From a phage, in sequence record NC_105617.1: 50,709 nucleotides of DNA, one strand, 5' to 3'. The notes below the pieces were generated by a model. The model did no database searches, was not told the DNA's origin, and saw only the letters and a list, made by a program, of their open reading frames with translations. Position numbers and translations under genes: made by a program. This document shows, piece by piece, positions 21,327-42,644 of this stretch. The first letter of the stretch is position 1. Each line of letters begins with the position of its first letter.

Positions 21327-21355
21327 TTGTATGCCCTCGTCGTTAGTGTGTTTGA

Positions 21356-21384
21356 ATTGTATGTCGCATTTACTTTTATTGCAA
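21356..21384 (-). promoter_or_regulatory. Sigma70-like promoter for cor-like operon
   Basis: Minus strand TTGCAA-17 bp-TACAAT, about 25 nt upstream of RBS GAGGG. Confidence 0.5.
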
Positions 21385-21399
21385 TAGTTCGATTACAAT

Positions 21400-21790
21400 T
21401 TTTTTTCGCGTAACAGGTGTCTATTTTTGTAACTGGAAGTGGTGTTACAAAATCGACCTCATTCGACCGCAGGTAGATATGATAAAAACTCTATATAATA
21501 TATATAGATAGATAATATTTAATTTTAGCTTTATATATATAATTATTGCTGTGTAACAGTTGTCTATCATGTAACAGGTGATTTGATTGATTCGTCAAAT
21601 TTCTATCATATATGTTCAAAATTTAATCAATCTTGGTTCTATTCATGGATATCTGTGTATTTATAAGAAAAAGCGGTTACAAGTGTTACACAATATACAC
21701 CACATAAAATCAGTGTTAATCTATTGATTCCATTGATGCTGGTTGTAACTTGAGCGATATAGACACACGATTACACACCAATTACATGTA
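21400..21790. repeat. AT-rich divergent control region with iteron-like repeats (hub 1)
   Basis: GTAACAG(G/T)TGTCTAT at 21411 and 21556, further GTAACAGGTG/GTTACAA copies, long (TA)n tracts 21490-21545. Confidence 0.5.
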
Positions 21791-21795
21791 TTCGA

Positions 21796-21823
21796 TTGAC
21801 TAAACGCTGTTAATGGCTATAAT
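21796..21823 (+). promoter_or_regulatory. Consensus-like sigma70 promoter for exonuclease-erf-ssb operon
   Basis: TTGACT-16 bp-TATAAT, 31 nt upstream of the start codon at 21855. Confidence 0.55.
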
Positions 21824-21854
21824 GGATTCATCGTAAACGAAGGAGATAAACGAA

Positions 21855-27203: not shown

Positions 27204-27656
27204 TTAACTAAAAATGCTATTTGTCGTTCCAATATCTTCCTTCTTCACGACCCGCATAAACTTCTTGTTTTTGCAGCGCTTCTCAAGGCACTTGCCGTTC
27301 CCATCAAACTTCAGATCGAATCGCAGCCATGCGGCCCGAAATCCTTTGCAACCCTGTCGGCGATAAGCACGATGCGCCGCTTCAGCGCCTTGCCAGGAAA
27401 TCATATTTCGATCCTTCCAACCTTGAACCGTCTGGTTGCTAACTTTCAGAGCCTTTGCACAAGCCGCCGGACCACCATAATATTCAATAAGAGCATCCAA
27501 TCGCGCCCTCAGTCCTGCGCGCGTTTCTTCTTTATGGATATAAAATCCGCAGCGCTGGCGGGGCTTTTTGTCTTTACCGCGTCGTGTTCCGTTGTTACCA
27601 TTGATGTGACGCTTATCGATTTCACCAGTTGACTCTGCGATACGTTTCATATTCAT
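27204..27656 (-). CDS. Cro/YdaS-like HTH transcriptional regulator
   Basis: Start at ATG 27656 with RBS AGGAGAG; segment YYGGPAACAKALKVSNQTVQGW matches Cro/YdaS-type HTH pattern; basic N-terminal region. Confidence 0.45.
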   Translation of the reverse strand: MNMKRIAESTGEIDKRHINGNNGTRRGKDKKPRQRCGFYIHKEETRAGLRARLDALIEYYGGPAACAKALKVSNQTVQGWKDRNMISWQGAEAAHRAYRRQGCKGFRAAWLRFDLKFDGNGKCLEKRCKNKKFMRVVKKEDIGTTNSIFS

Positions 27657-29769: not shown

Positions 29770-30182
29770 TTACAGATAAAGGCGATTACTTAGAGTTTTA
29801 CGAGCGAGATCCTAGCGACACGAGAAAGGAGGACGCTCATCAAGTAGACTGCGTGTCTTGGTTGAAATACAATTTTCCTCAGCTTCTATTTTGGCACACA
29901 GTTAACGAAGGTGAAAAAACAATCACATCGGCGCTCAGGGACGAGCAAGCCGGATTGCTTAAAGGTGTTTCGGACTTCGTTATCCTGATTGGTGTAAACT
30001 CACGTTACCCGTTCGCAGCTATCGAACTCAAACGGGTTAATAAGTCCGGCAAGGGAAAGGCGTCACCAGTCAGCGATAAGCAAAGGGAGTTTCTCAAAAA
30101 GGTTCGGGATCGCGGTGGATTCTCTGCCGTTGCATACGGATTTGAGCAATTCAAGCTGGCAATATACGATTTAACTAAATAG
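29766..30182 (+). CDS. VRR-NUC domain nuclease
   Basis: 138 aa with D...ELK signature (SDFVILIG...AIELK) typical of VRR-NUC PD-(D/E)xK nucleases; overlaps helicase stop. Confidence 0.55.
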   Translation: MITDKGDYLEFYERDPSDTRKEDAHQVDCVSWLKYNFPQLLFWHTVNEGEKTITSALRDEQAGLLKGVSDFVILIGVNSRYPFAAIELKRVNKSGKGKASPVSDKQREFLKKVRDRGGFSAVAYGFEQFKLAIYDLTK

Positions 30183-30228
30183 CACTTTTTGTTAAAACTG
30201 CCTGAATGGAATCTGGCATTATTATCCC
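30180..30228 (+). promoter_or_regulatory. Box-hairpin-(-10) cassette upstream of dam
   Basis: TAG stop of upstream gene = box start; ttgtta + 22 nt + CATTAT; near-duplicate of minus cassette 40057-40099. Confidence 0.5.
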
Positions 30229-30249
30229 ACCGAAACGAGAGGATTAAAA

Positions 30250-30963
30250 ATGAAAGACTTTAAAGATATCGAAACAATCGACTTTGCAGAAACCGGGTGC
30301 TCATTCACTCGCGAAGCAATAGCATCAGGCGGTTATTATCAAGCATTGAAAACGCCAACCTGCAAAGAGATTTCAGGACGTCGATACAAGGGAACAAATA
30401 CACCTGACGCAGTTCGTGATTTATGGTCAACCCCACGCGAGGTTATCGCATACCTTGAGGGTCGCTACGGAAAATATGATCTCGACGCTGCGGCAAGCGA
30501 AGAAAATAAAGTTTGCGAGAAGTTTTATTCCCAGGAAACAAACTGCTTAAAACGTTGGTGGGGTAAAAATAAGCACGTATGGTTAAACCCTCCTTACAGT
30601 CGACCTGATATATTCGTCAAGAAAGCGATTGAGCAAATGGAGCACAACAACCAGATCGATATTCTTTTACCTGCCGATAACTCGACTGCGTGGTTTACTG
30701 AGGCTCGACAGCACGCGGCTGAAATCATCTGGATTGAAGCTGATTTGACTGAGGATATTGACGGCAATGAATACGCACGATCCGGTCGCTTGGCTTTCAT
30801 ATCCGGTGAAACTGGAAAGGCGGTTGACGGCAATAACAAAGGTTCGGTAATTTTCATTATGCGCGAACTTAAAGAGGGTGAGACACAGCAAACTCACTAT
30901 ATCCCAATCACAAGCATTTGCCCTTCGGTGAAAAACAAGCGCGCAAAAGTGAGGAAAGTATGA
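30250..30963 (+). CDS. dam: DNA N6-adenine methyltransferase (phage Dam family)
   Basis: 237 aa; catalytic NPPY motif (WLNPPYS); architecture of phage orphan Dam enzymes. Confidence 0.8.
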   Translation: MKDFKDIETIDFAETGCSFTREAIASGGYYQALKTPTCKEISGRRYKGTNTPDAVRDLWSTPREVIAYLEGRYGKYDLDAAASEENKVCEKFYSQETNCLKRWWGKNKHVWLNPPYSRPDIFVKKAIEQMEHNNQIDILLPADNSTAWFTEARQHAAEIIWIEADLTEDIDGNEYARSGRLAFISGETGKAVDGNNKGSVIFIMRELKEGETQQTHYIPITSICPSVKNKRAKVRKV

Positions 30964-39639: not shown

Positions 39640-39682
39640 ACTATACCCCGATCTCACTCGGGGCGTTTAGCAATTCGTGCTA
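39640..39682 (-). promoter_or_regulatory. Box-hairpin-(-10) cassette (minus)
   Basis: Minus strand TAA stop + tagcacgaattgctaaac + 22 nt + TATAGT; hairpin ccccga/tcgggg. Confidence 0.55.
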
Positions 39683-40018
39683 TTAATCGATATCAAACTC
39701 AGCGGCGTATGCTTTCTTGAAGCCAGCTTCGCGCATAGTGCGCTTGCTGATTTTGCGCGGGAATTTGTACTGGCTGTTAGGCTTGACCCACCAGAAGCAG
39801 GAAGTCTCGCGAACGATTTCATATTTACCGTAACGAGTGAAGGTATCGCGTTCCATATCAGGCTGATTAACACAGGTCAGGAATTTAGCTGCTTTGTCTT
39901 CAGTTTTGATTTCTTCCCAAACGAATGAGTCCATTCCGTTAACCTTGCAAGCAACCATGATGTACTCAACGCCGTTTTCGATTTTGATGATTTCGTTACC
40001 GCGATTTTCGTATTTCAT
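39683..40018 (-). CDS. Hypothetical protein
   Basis: Start at ATG 40018 with RBS AGGAG downstream of cassette 40057-40099. Confidence 0.45.
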   Translation of the reverse strand: MKYENRGNEIIKIENGVEYIMVACKVNGMDSFVWEEIKTEDKAAKFLTCVNQPDMERDTFTRYGKYEIVRETSCFWWVKPNSQYKFPRKISKRTMREAGFKKAYAAEFDID

Positions 40019-40099: not shown

Positions 40100-40788
40100 T
40101 TTGCGATCGCTTTAAAAAATCCCCTGGGCGACAGGGATCGTATCAACTTAGTTTTGGCAGATTTGCCGCCTAGCTTACTGTGCTGTGCAGAGTACCCGTC
40201 AGGCAGGCTTACAGGTTTTCTCTCGGGCATGACAAAATCGTCAGAGGTCCAAAGGCAAGTTTTCTTCGGGTAAGCATCGCGCGGCGCAATATACATCGGG
40301 AACCAGGGGTGTGAGTCATTCTCAGGAAGATAGCCGCCATACTCCCAGGGATTGAAGGAGTGATTTGGTTTTCTCCAGGCAGATGACAGGACGCTAACCG
40401 GATTCTCAATGATGTAAGTCACGCCCAGGCTATCGCCAATGTTCGCAGCAATCCGGGCGGTGGCAACAGCCTTCTCCTGGAATAACTGATCGCGTTCACG
40501 CTTTCTTGCGAAGTGAGCGGCACCACTAACAGCTAGGTCAGTGCACGGCGGGAAGGCCATAATGAAATCCGGCTTGCCATACACGCCAGCGATAGCATCA
40601 CGCTCAAACGCTGCGTCAATGAACACGTTCACATACTCAATGTTCGGATGCTCCACTCGGGCATTGTACTTTGCGTAATCTCCGTGATCGGCTCCGTCAA
40701 AGTTGAAGCACATTACCTTGTGACCTTGCTTAGCTAGCTCATGACCAGCAAGACCGGAACCGTCGAATAGGGACCAAATCAACTTCAT
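40084..40788 (-). CDS. DNA cytosine-C5 methyltransferase-like protein (compact, noncanonical)
   Basis: Motif I-like LFDGSGLAG, motif IV-like FPPCTDLAVSGA (PC dipeptide, T in place of Q), motif VI-like IIENPVS; only 234 aa; last five codons (NSTFC-stop) are encoded by a TAGCAC box. Confidence 0.5.
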   Translation of the reverse strand: MKLIWSLFDGSGLAGHELAKQGHKVMCFNFDGADHGDYAKYNARVEHPNIEYVNVFIDAAFERDAIAGVYGKPDFIMAFPPCTDLAVSGAAHFARKRERDQLFQEKAVATARIAANIGDSLGVTYIIENPVSVLSSAWRKPNHSFNPWEYGGYLPENDSHPWFPMYIAPRDAYPKKTCLWTSDDFVMPERKPVSLPDGYSAQHSKLGGKSAKTKLIRSLSPRGFFKAIANSTFC

Positions 40789-40928
40789 TTTGCGATCTCC
40801 TTTTTGTAGTGATTCAGCTTGTCGATGATTGACTTCGACTTGTTGGCTAGCGCCATGTCAGAGAACAGAGCTACGCGATAGATGTGTTCGTAACGATTAA
40901 TGGCTGCGTTGATGTTTGCAATATTCAT
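40785..40928 (-). CDS. Small hypothetical protein
   Basis: 47 aa from ATG 40928 behind CCAATCAGAGGA leader; first gene of the minus-strand block. Confidence 0.35.
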   Translation of the reverse strand: MNIANINAAINRYEHIYRVALFSDMALANKSKSIIDKLNHYKKEIAK

Positions 40929-41018
40929 GTCGATTCCTCTGATTGGTTGATGAGATGAATCATACCCGATCGGCAGTGCTGATGTGTTGCAAAAAATGCT
41001 ATTCCAATAGTTGCTCAT

Positions 41019-41610
41019 TATTCCACCATCAATGGAATATCTGGAATAATTGCGATCCCGATTGATCTCGAATGATGAAATGTGATTGTTGCATGGTGTG
41101 CAACTGTTGATGTGATTGTTTCTTAGAATGCAATGATTGTGAGAGGGGGGATTTAGTGTTACCCGGTTCGCCTGGTGGTCATCTCCATTTTTAGCAAAAC
41201 GTGCTATCGATTACAATTTAACTTGTCACGACTGTAATATTTGTCTAGAATCGCACTTGTGACAAAATTACGCACTGTGACGCATCACAATAGACATATA
41301 GATATATGTATATATATAATATATATAGTGTTTTTTTTATTTATATATATAGATAATTATATTGTAATAGTTGTGTATAGCCGTCTTACATTGTCTAGCG
41401 TACTGTTGGCATATTTCTATCTGCATGTTTATATATACAGTACTTTTTTGAGGGCTATATATTTCTATAGTGACTCTAGACAGCTAGACAAATATTACAC
41501 AGCTTAAAATTGGCTTGCAGTCGTTGACAGCTCTACGTCGCTCTGTCACAATGGCAATTGTTGACATGCTATGACACCATTTACACACCAATAGACAAAG
41601 AGGGCACATT
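41019..41610. repeat. AT-rich divergent control region with repeated TGTCAC/GTGACA and TTGTCTAG/CTAGACAA motifs (hub 2)
   Basis: Repeats tgtgattgtt x2, acttgtcac/acttgtgac, ttgtctag x2, ctagaca x2, atagaca x2; (TA)n tracts 41295-41360. Confidence 0.5.
41524..41552 (+). promoter_or_regulatory. Candidate sigma70 promoter for plus-strand early block
   Basis: TTGACA-17 bp-CACAAT about 58 nt upstream of ATG 41611. Confidence 0.4.
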
Positions 41611-42126
41611 ATGAGCAATACCAATCAGGAATTAAAAATCACCGACATGATTCGACTAACCTGCGATGCAATGTACCGCGACAAAGGCATGACCGAGTTC
41701 TCTTTCGTGGCTGATGATATGGCCCTAGAAGCAGCGCGATTCTACTTTCGTGGCCAGGAGGTAAGTGATAGCGATCTTGAATCTGCCGCTGCCGGATGGG
41801 TGGACCAGAACCAGGGGGAGGTAGAGAAGCGATTCAAATCTGCTTTCATCACTCCAATCATTACCCGACACTTTTGCAAGTATGGCAAGGTGGCAAAGGT
41901 GAAGGTAGGCCGGAATGACGCGGCAATCACGATGATAACCGTTATCGTTACCGACGAAGAGGTTCCGGTGAAGAAGCGCCGCAGCCGGAAAAAAGTTAGC
42001 CTGGCCGACTGCCTTGATTCGTTTGACGTTGATGTTAGCAAGCTATCCGATAGCGAGTTAATGGTTCGTGATGTGAATGAGATCGTGCGCCAGATGAAAG
42101 CACATATTGAAAAGTGTGGACTGTAA
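41611..42126 (+). CDS. Hypothetical protein
   Basis: 171 aa, first gene of the plus-strand early block, RBS AGAGGG; basic patch KKRRSRKK. Confidence 0.5.
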   Translation: MSNTNQELKITDMIRLTCDAMYRDKGMTEFSFVADDMALEAARFYFRGQEVSDSDLESAAAGWVDQNQGEVEKRFKSAFITPIITRHFCKYGKVAKVKVGRNDAAITMITVIVTDEEVPVKKRRSRKKVSLADCLDSFDVDVSKLSDSELMVRDVNEIVRQMKAHIEKCGL

Positions 42127-42138
42127 GGAGAGATGAGT

Positions 42139-42378
42139 ATGAGCAAGATTAAGCATGACGCCCTGAAAGGTATCTTGATGCGACTAAACCCAGGTGAAGC
42201 ATTCCAGCTTAACCCCGAGACGTTTGGATTCAATGGTGATTATCGTACAACCTTCGAATTTGTCCGGTATGTAAAGAAAGAGTTTGGATTCGAAGTTATT
42301 CACGCAGGTCTTATCAATGGCATCCAGACATTCATCTTTAAGCCAAATGAGATTCGTTGCTTCACGCTGATGAAATAG
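42139..42378 (+). CDS. Hypothetical protein
   Basis: ATG 42139 preferred over 42133 for RBS spacing; stop TAG lies in a TAGCAC box. Confidence 0.45.
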   Translation: MSKIKHDALKGILMRLNPGEAFQLNPETFGFNGDYRTTFEFVRYVKKEFGFEVIHAGLINGIQTFIFKPNEIRCFTLMK

Positions 42379-42424
42379 CACTTTTTGTTAAAACCGGAGC
42401 GGGATAACCTGGTATAGTTATCCC
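42376..42424 (+). promoter_or_regulatory. Box-hairpin-(-10) cassette
   Basis: TAG stop = box start; ttgtta + 22 nt + TATAGT; hairpin gggataa/ttatccc. Confidence 0.55.
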
Positions 42425-42449: not shown

Positions 42450-42644
42450 ATGGAAACGCAAATTGACGTAGTGGTTGTTCAGCGTGACTCCACCCATGAA
42501 AAGGGGCTATTCAAGAAAGGAACTGAAATCACGATAGACCTTGAGGATATGGTTGCATATCACTCGGGTCTTACCTGGAACGTGGTGCGCGTAGGCAGCG
42601 ACTACAAACTCAAAGGCTTTAACACTTACTTTGCGGAGGTTTAA
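42450..42644 (+). CDS. Hypothetical protein
   Basis: 64 aa behind cassette 42376-42424. Confidence 0.45.
   Translation: METQIDVVVVQRDSTHEKGLFKKGTEITIDLEDMVAYHSGLTWNVVRVGSDYKLKGFNTYFAEV

Follow-up and report, generated by a model that had tools for sequence, protein, structure and literature searches.

The lambda operators are 17-bp dyad-symmetric sequences that overlap promoter cores, are adjoined by the regulator genes, and are read by one repressor/Cro pair. In Bacillus phage SPP1, oriL (which lies inside a gene) and oriR share G38P boxes next to an AT-rich region, and for SPP1 and P4 alike, origin activity and initiator binding have been demonstrated. Herpes simplex virus and SV40, eukaryotic viruses with unrelated proteins, place an AT-rich palindrome between inverted initiator sites, and in T4 oriF and oriG and the T7 primary origin a promoter is followed by an AT-rich unwinding element, without iteron-like arrays. 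Here we describe two regions that can be compared with these systems, hub 1 and hub 2, in the phage genome NC_105617.1 (50,709 nt; “the window” denotes this whole stretch). We give roughly even credence to a reading in which the repeated hexamers are phased arrays that bind one lineage-specific factor, and in which the hubs are two paralogous modules of divergent promoters.

T1 belongs to the seven original T phages, and phages of the T1-like kind are notorious for contaminating laboratories. The hub region and both hubs of NC_105617.1 match 60-70 records of Tunavirus (Drexlerviridae) at 80-99% identity (e.g. LeonhardEuler, CLB_P3, Shfl1 and T1), and the window thus amounts to an essentially complete T1-like genome, of which the two hubs together make up 2.2% (Table 1). 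A preliminary description of hub 2 had listed a set of short repeats, proposed that their TGTCTA core is common to both hubs, and named a background frequency of this hexamer across the genome as grounds for refutation. All of the listed words are present, with two ATAGACA copies lying one nucleotide away from the positions given (at 41290 and 41591, rather than 41289 and 41590). TGTCTA occurs at 16 sites on the two strands of the window, compared with 20.0 ± 4.3 in shuffled sequences, so that its overall count is indeed at background, which formally would refute the proposal. Its placement, however, is strongly non-random, with nine of the 16 sites inside the hubs (six in hub 2 and three in hub 1; binomial p = 1.3e-11), and among 670 hexamers TGTCTA is the third most hub-enriched, behind TATATA and ATATAT. 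Dinucleotide shuffles of hub 2 contain 0.45 copies on average, and none of 5000 reaches six; for hub 1 the mean is 0.36, and 27 of 5000 shuffles reach three. Because the signal is in placement, genome-wide frequency is the wrong test for this hexamer, and its presence in both hubs is far beyond chance.

The similarity extends past the hexamer itself, as TGTCTA is one half of a 15-nt bipartite motif, TGTAAY-N3-TGT(C/A/G)TA (also written TGTAAY-N3-TGTMTA). Allowing one mismatch, there are seven copies in the genome, six of which are in the hubs, three in each, in the same order and orientation (+, +, -) and with the second site immediately following an AT core in both cases. The first and third sites of hub 2 also provide the arms of a perfect 16-nt inverted repeat, TGTAATATTTGTCTAG (41233-41248 and 41484-41499, 235 nt apart), which is absent from the preliminary description. 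A wider class of hexamers, TGT[ACG]TA or TGTAA[CT], has 101 matches in the genome, 34 of them in the hubs, and the two 500-nt bins with the most hub class hexamers hold 14 each against a genome mean of 1.0. Within each hub these hexamers fall into four clusters (A-D), each with two or three units 8-11 nt apart, in which TGTCTA is commonest and is accompanied by TGTATA, TGTGTA and TGTAAY. They reside on the top strand to the left and on the bottom strand to the right, with one switch of orientation per hub (within 41392-41434 in hub 2 and 21654-21676 in hub 1). The motif sites are not gathered in a single tandem array but are spread over ~370 bp in small clusters, three sites per hub plus the extra hexamers.

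Similar arrangements are found among relatives. In hub 1, the three sites lie at -446, -303 and -84 from the exonuclease ATG, with orientation kept, in 16 Tunavirus genomes (one of which has no match at the third site), and the 3-nt spacer of the motif varies among AGG, AAG, GGG and AGT. Among related genera, the hub 1 of IME347 has three sites at shifted positions and with different spacers, and that of SRT8 has one. Among 11 hub 2 regions of the type present in the window (window-type), eight contain all three sites, at -376 to -379, -247 to -249 and -127 to -128; the other three are a truncated contig and a chimera, with the third site only, and one region that was not scanned for sites. 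The exact position of site A is -378 from the ATG in eight of the 11 genomes, and it varies between -376 and -379 in the others that contain the site. Half-sites that are fixed around spacers that are free are the signature of a recognised motif.

Hub 2 is composite, consisting of a left block, considered below, and a remainder (41216-41610) that is paralogous to hub 1. The two hubs align in colinear blocks: an exact 12-mer CGATTACAATTT, which contains the -35 of a leftward promoter-like element, the AT core, site B (14 of 16 positions identical), and a second exact 12-mer, TTACACACCAAT. Since the phage has recombination genes of its own (exonuclease VIII and Erf) and the hubs can be aligned, an old duplication might have been kept similar by gene conversion, leaving motifs that have no function. 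We regard such a neutral origin as very improbable: the similarity lies in short motifs and in layout rather than along the whole sequence, the motif positions are fixed where the spacers vary, the architecture persists across genera that have different motifs, and 0.5 kb of neutral DNA is rarely kept in compact lytic genomes.

The family-wide distribution of this architecture is informative in another respect. Ten Drexlerviridae hub 1 loci, TLS and more distant genera among them, were drawn from 46 IMG/VR contigs, and all have the same layout, in which the exonuclease ATG is preceded by an AT core at a distance of 314-361 nt (10 of 10 loci), a consensus-like sigma-70 promoter faces right, and short repeated words run in opposite directions to the left and to the right. 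A left-facing promoter of the 21-nt-repeat type described below is present in five of the six more distant loci, and not in TLS itself. The words themselves are lineage-specific, those of TLS-like genera being TTGTTC, TGTTCAC and TTTTGT, and the same TLS-specific words recur in the second hub of TLS, which is located where its genome ends meet. Co-variation between hubs was assessed by taking hexamers that occur at least three times in a hub 1, excluding pure A/T words, and counting them in a hub 2. The hub 1 hexamers of NC_105617.1 occur 37 times in its own hub 2 (shuffles 14.5 ± 4.4, with 0 of 2000 reaching this count) and nine times in the hub 2 of TLS (shuffles 9.9). Conversely, the hub 1 hexamers of TLS occur 23 times in the TLS hub 2 (shuffles 7.8 ± 3.2, again with 0 of 2000 reaching the count) and four times in that of NC_105617.1 (shuffles 4.5). 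Co-variation of this kind across genera (Tunavirus and Tlsvirus) is predicted if one recognition system reads both hubs, and it supports such a system more strongly than any other observation made here.

Both hubs are edged by divergent -35/-10 candidates, at 41216-41188 (-) and 41524-41552 (+) in hub 2 and at 21384-21356 (-) and 21796-21823 (+) in hub 1; the site homologous to 41524-41552 is annotated as a promoter in vB_EcoS_SA30RD. A further promoter-like element, at 41223-41251, aims at an AT-rich tract 45-110 nt downstream, and its TTGNNN-N17-TANNAT geometry is kept in an alignment of five diverged lineages (NC_105617.1, T1, LHE71, ISF001 and AV106). Site A is the only motif site that overlaps a promoter-like core, namely this one, the others being located upstream of or between promoters. 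A role in transcription control is favored by the position of the clusters at or just upstream of promoter-like cores, with site A inside the 41223-41251 element, and the units of cluster C in the window, CTAGACA-GCTAGACA-AATATTACA, lie 23-48 nt upstream of the rightward -35 TTGACA. A separate palindrome, ACAATGGCAATTGT, overlaps the -10 of this rightward promoter; it is present in window-type hubs and absent from T1-type hubs, and its ACAA-N6-TTGT arrangement is the pattern of phage 434 operators.

The hexamers might, on the other hand, require no dedicated factor at all, if they were -35-like words (TAGACA, ATTACA and GTTACA, as compared with TTGACA) of overlapping, outward-facing sigma-70 promoters, in which case what the hubs have in common would be RNA polymerase. 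On each half of a hub the hexamers read TNNACA toward the flanking transcription unit, TAGACA is the -35 of predicted promoters at 41291-41320 (11/12 positions) and 21566-21539, and the arrays of other lineages end in ACA as well (TTAACA, GTTGCA, TATACA). Nevertheless, this seems improbable, as the invariant part is ACA and not the TTG that matters most for a -35, most of the hexamers have no -10 partner at 16-18 nt, and promoter-like matches are no more numerous than in shuffled sequence. Moreover, the Tlsvirus words TTGTTC, GGAACA and AAACAA would be poor -35s, yet they display the same layout and the same hub co-variation, and the specificity of RNA polymerase is the same for lineages that infect the same host.

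The AT core of hub 2 is nearly identical in all of the aligned hubs except that of AV106, though the flanks have diverged, and judged from this alignment it is constrained in sequence and not in composition alone. It resembles the core of hub 1 (21485-21547) and those of other genera, and the 500-nt bin that contains it has a GC content of 0.336, compared with ~0.45 for the genome. A cruciform was considered and rejected, the single-strand fold of the core not exceeding that of shuffles (z -0.79). To the right of the core is a conserved island, ATGTTTATATATACAG, which is identical in window-type and T1-type hubs within an otherwise diverged stretch; a scan for LexA boxes found a sole LexA-like box, with one mismatch, and SRT8 carries a perfect CTGTGTATATATACAG at the place equivalent to the island.

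A role in replication would fit the anatomy of the hubs about as well as the action of a transcription regulator. Tentatively, both hubs may be replication origins in which iteron-like arrays beside a meltable A+T core are bound by a lineage-specific initiator, possibly a Cro-like helix-turn-helix (HTH) protein and possibly with help from host DnaA, while flanking promoters such as that at 41223-41251 activate or prime; this is compatible with one factor reading both hubs. In a fuller form, which is likewise conceivable but doubtful, the hubs would be the origin pair of T1-like phages, served by the Cro-like HTH protein as their one initiator, with the hub 2 origin beside the packaging start and early promoters firing the origins. 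Several observations speak for origins. A 92% A+T core is kept across the family while the repeats that flank it are lineage-specific; these repeats are oppositely oriented on its two sides; and, as in iteron origins, an AT-rich, easily unwound segment adjoins them. There are two copies with common repeats, as in SPP1 oriL and oriR, hub 1 heads the exonuclease-Erf-SSB cluster, the HTH gene is directly upstream of primase, a conserved promoter-like element is aimed at the core, and the conserved non-coding DNA is unusually long. The heptamer TTACACA/TGTGTAA is exclusive to the hubs, with five copies in 50.7 kb (41493, 41579, 21550, 21684 and 21771), and gives rise to 9-mers that match the DnaA box TTWTNCACA at eight of nine positions; such 8/9 matches number seven in the hubs and 82 genome-wide, with ~2 expected in the hubs by length. 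Finally, papers on T1-like genomes report finding neither an origin nor iterons (PMC11447400, PMC7718038).

Other features are less easily reconciled with origins. The sites are distributed over ~370 bp in small clusters rather than in a tight iteron array, the hubs contain no 9/9 match to the DnaA box, and in neither hub does the core part have a GATC cluster. An unwinding element would not require the AT core to be conserved in sequence, and no recognised initiator fold was found; a helicase was considered for a P4-alpha-like origin-binding domain and set aside, as it has no match to a solved structure by sequence. Scans for other host factors found no consensus site for IHF in hub 2 and one in hub 1, and no CRP site in the hubs, where TGTGAcgcaTCACA has the wrong spacing.

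The Cro-like HTH protein is the only DNA-binding signature among 22 predicted products scanned, which comprise the two gene blocks beside the hubs and the replication/recombination region; the ten products around hub 2, five per side, have no match to a DNA-binding family. A near-consensus TTGAAT-N17-TATAAT (27735-27707) precedes the HTH gene. The divergent point near 27.7 kb was rejected as a third hub, as the gap there is only ~95 nt and has neither AT core nor motif. Phage records that contain the protein number 824 and span many Drexlerviridae genera, with identities of 50-100%. Its putative recognition helix, assigned on the analogy of Cro-type HTH proteins, has the sequence SNQTVQGWK at 12 of the 13 Tunavirus loci and TNQTVQGWK at the remaining one, TNQNVNEWK in SRT8 and NLKTVWGWK in TLS, and the latter two phages have different hub words. 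The protein is thus a candidate reader of the hubs, although with three lineages and three motif types the correspondence is a lead and not a test.

Taken together, the reading that we prefer is one in which a single sequence-specific DNA-binding protein, differing in specificity from lineage to lineage, would bind the phased hexamers cooperatively at both hubs and thereby co-ordinate two pairs of divergent early transcription units. The best candidate for this binder would be the Cro-like HTH protein encoded upstream of primase, and the complex that it forms on the DNA may in addition melt the A+T core so that replication can start. Protein binding, the identity of the binder and the effect of its binding are what we infer.

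Several observations weigh against this reading. The motif is non-palindromic and has no dyad symmetry, unlike classical HTH operators, and the hubs depart from the operator family both in lacking dyad-symmetric sites that overlap promoter cores and in lacking a regulator gene that adjoins the operators; the HTH gene is 13.5 kb away and has no motif at its own promoter. Promoter-like matches show no excess over shuffles (5 vs 4.1 in hub 2 and 6 vs 3.6 in hub 1), and because of this, in such AT-rich DNA, the promoter predictions weigh little either way. More than 500 bp of conserved non-coding DNA exceeds the usual need of promoters and operators. In addition, the central C of TGTCTA is not essential, because T1 has TGTATA at several sites: T1 hub 1 is 90.6% identical to that of the window (BLAST) and retains the motif sites, two of which read TGTATA. 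(A concerted C-to-A change, suggested by TGTATA at sites A and B of hub 1 and site A of hub 2 in T1, was dropped, as AV106 has TGTATA in hub 2 and TGTCTA in hub 1.) The HTH protein is 95-100% identical within Tunavirus, including phages that differ at cluster C, and so it cannot explain the variable arrays at that position. In phages of the T1 and AV106 types, the right half of hub 2 contains unrelated 9-nt arrays though hub 1 and the HTH protein are unchanged, which argues that at least cluster C is not read by the HTH protein in these phages.

The variability at cluster C can be described more fully. The part of hub 2 to the right of ~41448 (zone 3) is lineage-specific, and the arrays of relatives at the cluster C position consist of three units of ~9 nt. 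These are CGATTAACA in three copies in T1, JMPW2, ISF001/ISF002, LHE71 and ULIM2; two copies of TCGGTTGCA plus CTGGTTACA in AV106 and phiL; GTGACA, TATACA and TGTACA units in IME347; and TTACAT and TATACAT units in SRT8. There is no TGTCTA in T1 hub 2 to the right of the record start, and hubs 2 of the T1 and AV106 types have no right-hand array of the TGTCTA type, their hub 1 nonetheless keeping the motif. Because those hubs have other arrays, the shared TGTCTA is a trait of this sub-lineage. The earlier suggestion of one regulator for both hubs is therefore upheld only in part: motif sharing and hub co-variation fit it, and the absence of the right-hand array from these relatives does not. 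A compensatory inverted repeat around site A (TTGTCAC/GTGACAA here, GATTGCG/CGCAATC in T1) was also considered and rejected, since its arms fall in different alignment columns and ISF001 has none.

These arrays have a parallel in the adjacent gene (41611-42126), the product of which diverges along with them, to 53% identity in T1 (45-59% across the T1 type) and 24% in AV106, whereas proteins at least 74% identical to it keep the window-type array. Two proteins might then read hub 2, one at sites A and B, which are shared with hub 1, and the other, the product of 41611-42126, at cluster C as its own autoregulatory site. The correspondence of three array types with three protein types (window, T1 and AV106) and the conserved basic stretch KKRRSRKK in the protein are consistent with this; a structural model of the product (pLDDT 85) gave no convincing fold match. 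We consider it unlikely, as the array and the gene are adjacent and their association is explained by linkage, joint inheritance by recombination being sufficient. The hub 2 of Shigella phage vB_SsoS_008, which also speaks against a second reader, is a chimera with a T1-type ribosome-binding-site segment between a window-type promoter and a window-type leader, and this junction indicates that recombination has occurred inside the hub.

The left block of hub 2 is a different matter. The preliminary description had treated the tgtgattgtt pair as one set with the other repeats, a grouping that does not survive comparison, as the pair is part of a distinct block that hardly varies and whose position is that of the T1 genome end. 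In an alignment of eight Tunavirus hub 2 regions, including those of T1 and AV106, from which the zones of hub 2 were defined, this block (zone 1) is almost identical throughout despite diverged flanks, and the tgtgattgtt pair lies within ATGTGATTGTT at 41080 and 41110. Four T1 records have as their first base the equivalent of 41088, which falls within the first ATGTGATT/GTT, and one T1 record annotates 1-2800 as a repeat region; other records start at the equivalents of 41142, 41143, 41156 and 41176 (range 41142-41178). T1 pac has been located in this untranslated region (PMC7718038). TLS belongs to a different genus; the start of its record, for which pac mapping was the basis (PMC11447400), is ~6 nt before TGTGATTG, in a run of TGATTG/GATTTG repeats. 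The left block is thus probably the packaging (pac) or genome-end region, corresponding to the physical left end of T1 DNA, where the packaging series begins, and coinciding, by homology only, with the end of the first packaged genome. Given the agreement of T1 record starts, terminal repeat, pac literature and TLS start, the tgtgattgtt repeats are assigned to this packaging-end block and not to promoter control.

Near the right edge of the block is one perfect copy of the Drexlerviridae 21-nt repeat, aaATAGCACnnnTTGnTAAAA, facing the leftward genes. It matches ATAGCACnnnTTGnTAAAA, in the direction of transcription, with no mismatches (41189-41207, minus strand), and together with TTGTAA and TAAAAA it is the predicted leftward promoter of hub 2. 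Unlike the TGTCTA-type hexamers, this repeat is a separate element that is not confined to the hubs, with 27 copies across the genome at up to three mismatches (2.1 expected). The block is probably transcribed leftward as a leader, because it is downstream of the perfect copy; a structured leader RNA was rejected, since the 252-nt leftward RNA folds no better than shuffles (z -0.06). The hub 2 copy does not show the ~76-nt spacing to a start codon, the nearest leftward starts being 171 nt (41018) or 259 nt (40930) away, and has no TATAGT-like hexamer 19-20 nt downstream. The TLS paper describes this intergenic repeat and treats its function as an open question (PMC11447400). It also fits the E. 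coli soxbox/marbox consensus AYNGCACNNWNNRYYAAAYN, as quoted in PMC2064960, with 22 matches at up to one mismatch compared with 1.2 expected (e.g. 42375-42393, +, and 39665-39683, -). Most copies have a TATAGT-like -10 hexamer 19-20 nt downstream, and between the two lies a short GC-rich inverted repeat of variable sequence. This distance from repeat to -10 resembles that of class II MarA/SoxS/Rob-dependent promoters. By analogy, the promoters with the 21-nt repeat may be served by an AraC-family activator, either one of the host or a phage mimic. In TLS hub 2, a perfect 16-bp palindrome, TAGACCGATTGGTCTA, occurs twice in tandem beside that hub's copy of the repeat.

The gap that contains hub 2 is flanked on the left by a leftward block ending in a Dcm-like methyltransferase and one small open reading frame (ORF), and on the right by a rightward block of small genes of unknown function. 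Most relatives have no coding sequence (CDS) annotated in this gap, and the non-coding stretch probably extends left to 40931, because only an ORF of 41-47 aa is annotated there in relatives. A scan of 40700-41800 for Rfam-type families found no known RNA family at E up to 1, and E. coli genomes and plasmids yielded no homologues of the hubs outside phages. Rightward of hub 2, the third gene (42450-42644, +) is a full-length match to Pfam PF25180, “Gp54, phage antiviral trigger protein” (E 2.6e-36). The curated T1 record has, in hub 1, an annotated CDS of 46 aa together with a ribosome-binding site (T1 30110-30250), and the counterpart of this CDS in the window is a TTG-start ORF at 21587-21727 (+), a candidate gene only.

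Table 1. Positions of the hub elements and associated genes in NC_105617.1.
Feature	Position	Strand	Description
Hub 1	21327-21854		Flanked by the genes for the Cor lipoprotein (-) and exonuclease VIII (+)
Hub 1 promoter-like element	21384-21356	-	TTGCAA-N17-TACAAT
Hub 1 promoter-like element	21796-21823	+	TTGACT-N16-TATAAT
Hub 1 15-nt motif sites	21409, 21552, 21772	+, +, -	
Hub 1 cluster A	21409-21433	+	
Hub 1 cluster B	21550-21576	+	
Hub 1 cluster C	21676-21699	-	
Hub 1 cluster D	21760-21786	-	
Hub 1 word GGTGTCTAT	21416		
Hub 1 word TTGTCTATC	21560		
Cro-like HTH “transcriptional regulator” gene	27207-27656	-	150 aa; PHROG 2856, E 5.5e-76; weak Pfam P22_Cro match
Hub 2 near-invariant left block (zone 1)	about 40985-41215		Direct repeats ATGTGATTGTT at 41080-41090 and 41110-41120; palindrome GTTGCATGGTGTGCAAC at 41088-41104
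Hub 2 word TGTGATTGTT	41081, 41111		
Hub 2 21-nt repeat copy ATAGCACGTTTTGCTAAAA	41189-41207	-	19/19 match; TTGTAA (41216-41211) 17 nt upstream of TAAAAA (41193-41188)
Hub 2 word ACTTGTCAC	41221		
Hub 2 promoter-like element into AT core	41223-41251	+	TTGTCA-N17-TAGAAT, 10/12 positions; site A in spacer and -10 hexamer
Hub 2 15-nt motif sites	41233, 41363, 41485	+, +, -	
Hub 2 cluster A	41233-41248	+	Motif site TGTAATATTTGTCTAG; left arm of the 16-nt inverted repeat
Hub 2 word TTGTCTAG	41241, 41391		
Hub 2 word ACTTGTGAC	41255		
Hub 2 A+T core (zone 2)	41296-41362		62/67 A/T (92%); imperfect palindrome; the (TA)n tract of the preliminary description
Hub 2 cluster B	41363-41398	+	TGTAATAGTTGTGTATAG right after the AT core, and TGTCTAG at 41392-41398
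Hub 2 conserved island ATGTTTATATATACAG	41425-41440		LexA-box-like palindrome, one mismatch in the CTGT half; at the hexamer orientation switch
Hub 2 cluster C	41476-41501	-	CTAGACAGCTAGACAAATATTACACA; contains the right arm of the 16-nt inverted repeat; three units, in 8-9 nt phase; lineage-specific position
Hub 2 word CTAGACA	41476, 41484		
Hub 2 rightward promoter (predicted)	41524-41566	+	TTGACA (41524-41529)-N17-CACAAT (41547-41552), upstream TG; second TTGACA at 41561-41566
Hub 2 palindrome ACAATGGCAATTGT	41548-41561		14 bp, ACAA-N6-TTGT; overlaps the -10 of the rightward promoter and abuts the second TTGACA
Hub 2 cluster D	41581-41597	-	TTACACACCAATAGACA; its 12-mer TTACACACCAAT exact in hub 1 at 21771-21782
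First rightward gene of hub 2	41611-42126	+	171 aa, PHROG 11083, function unknown

The searchable literature contains no description of these hubs, the nearest published element being the unrelated 21-nt repeat of the TLS paper, and a search of it found no transcriptome of a T1-like phage. The phage has its own primase, helicases and recombination genes and relies on host RNA polymerase, in which it bears comparison with T4 and T7. If the reading is correct, questions of origin and of early control could be put to one named candidate protein and one defined motif in two defined regions of ~400 bp; the lineage differences in motifs would be a ready natural experiment, and both questions would be directly testable. 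Separation of the packaging-end block from the control module, in a region that annotations leave blank, also helps in rebooting and engineering these phages.

Like lambda OL and OR, the hubs would present one recognition system with two regions, kilobases apart and at early promoters, that have three main sites each. Unlike lambda, this is a virulent phage; its sites are bipartite direct hexamers distributed across ~370 bp about an AT core, and its candidate regulator is encoded 13.5 kb away. With oriL and oriR of SPP1, and likewise with ori and crr of P4, the hubs share the organization of two distant, non-identical regions that have common short repeats and an AT-rich segment beside them, the hubs being known here from sequence alone. 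The herpes simplex origins oriS and oriL and the SV40 origin are similar in their AT-rich imperfect palindrome, opposed sites, divergent units and occurrence in more than one copy; in the hubs, however, the switch in orientation is to the right of the AT core and not at its center. Finally, hub 2 resembles T4 oriF and oriG and the T7 primary origin in having a promoter-like element (41223-41251) that is aimed at an AT-rich tract.

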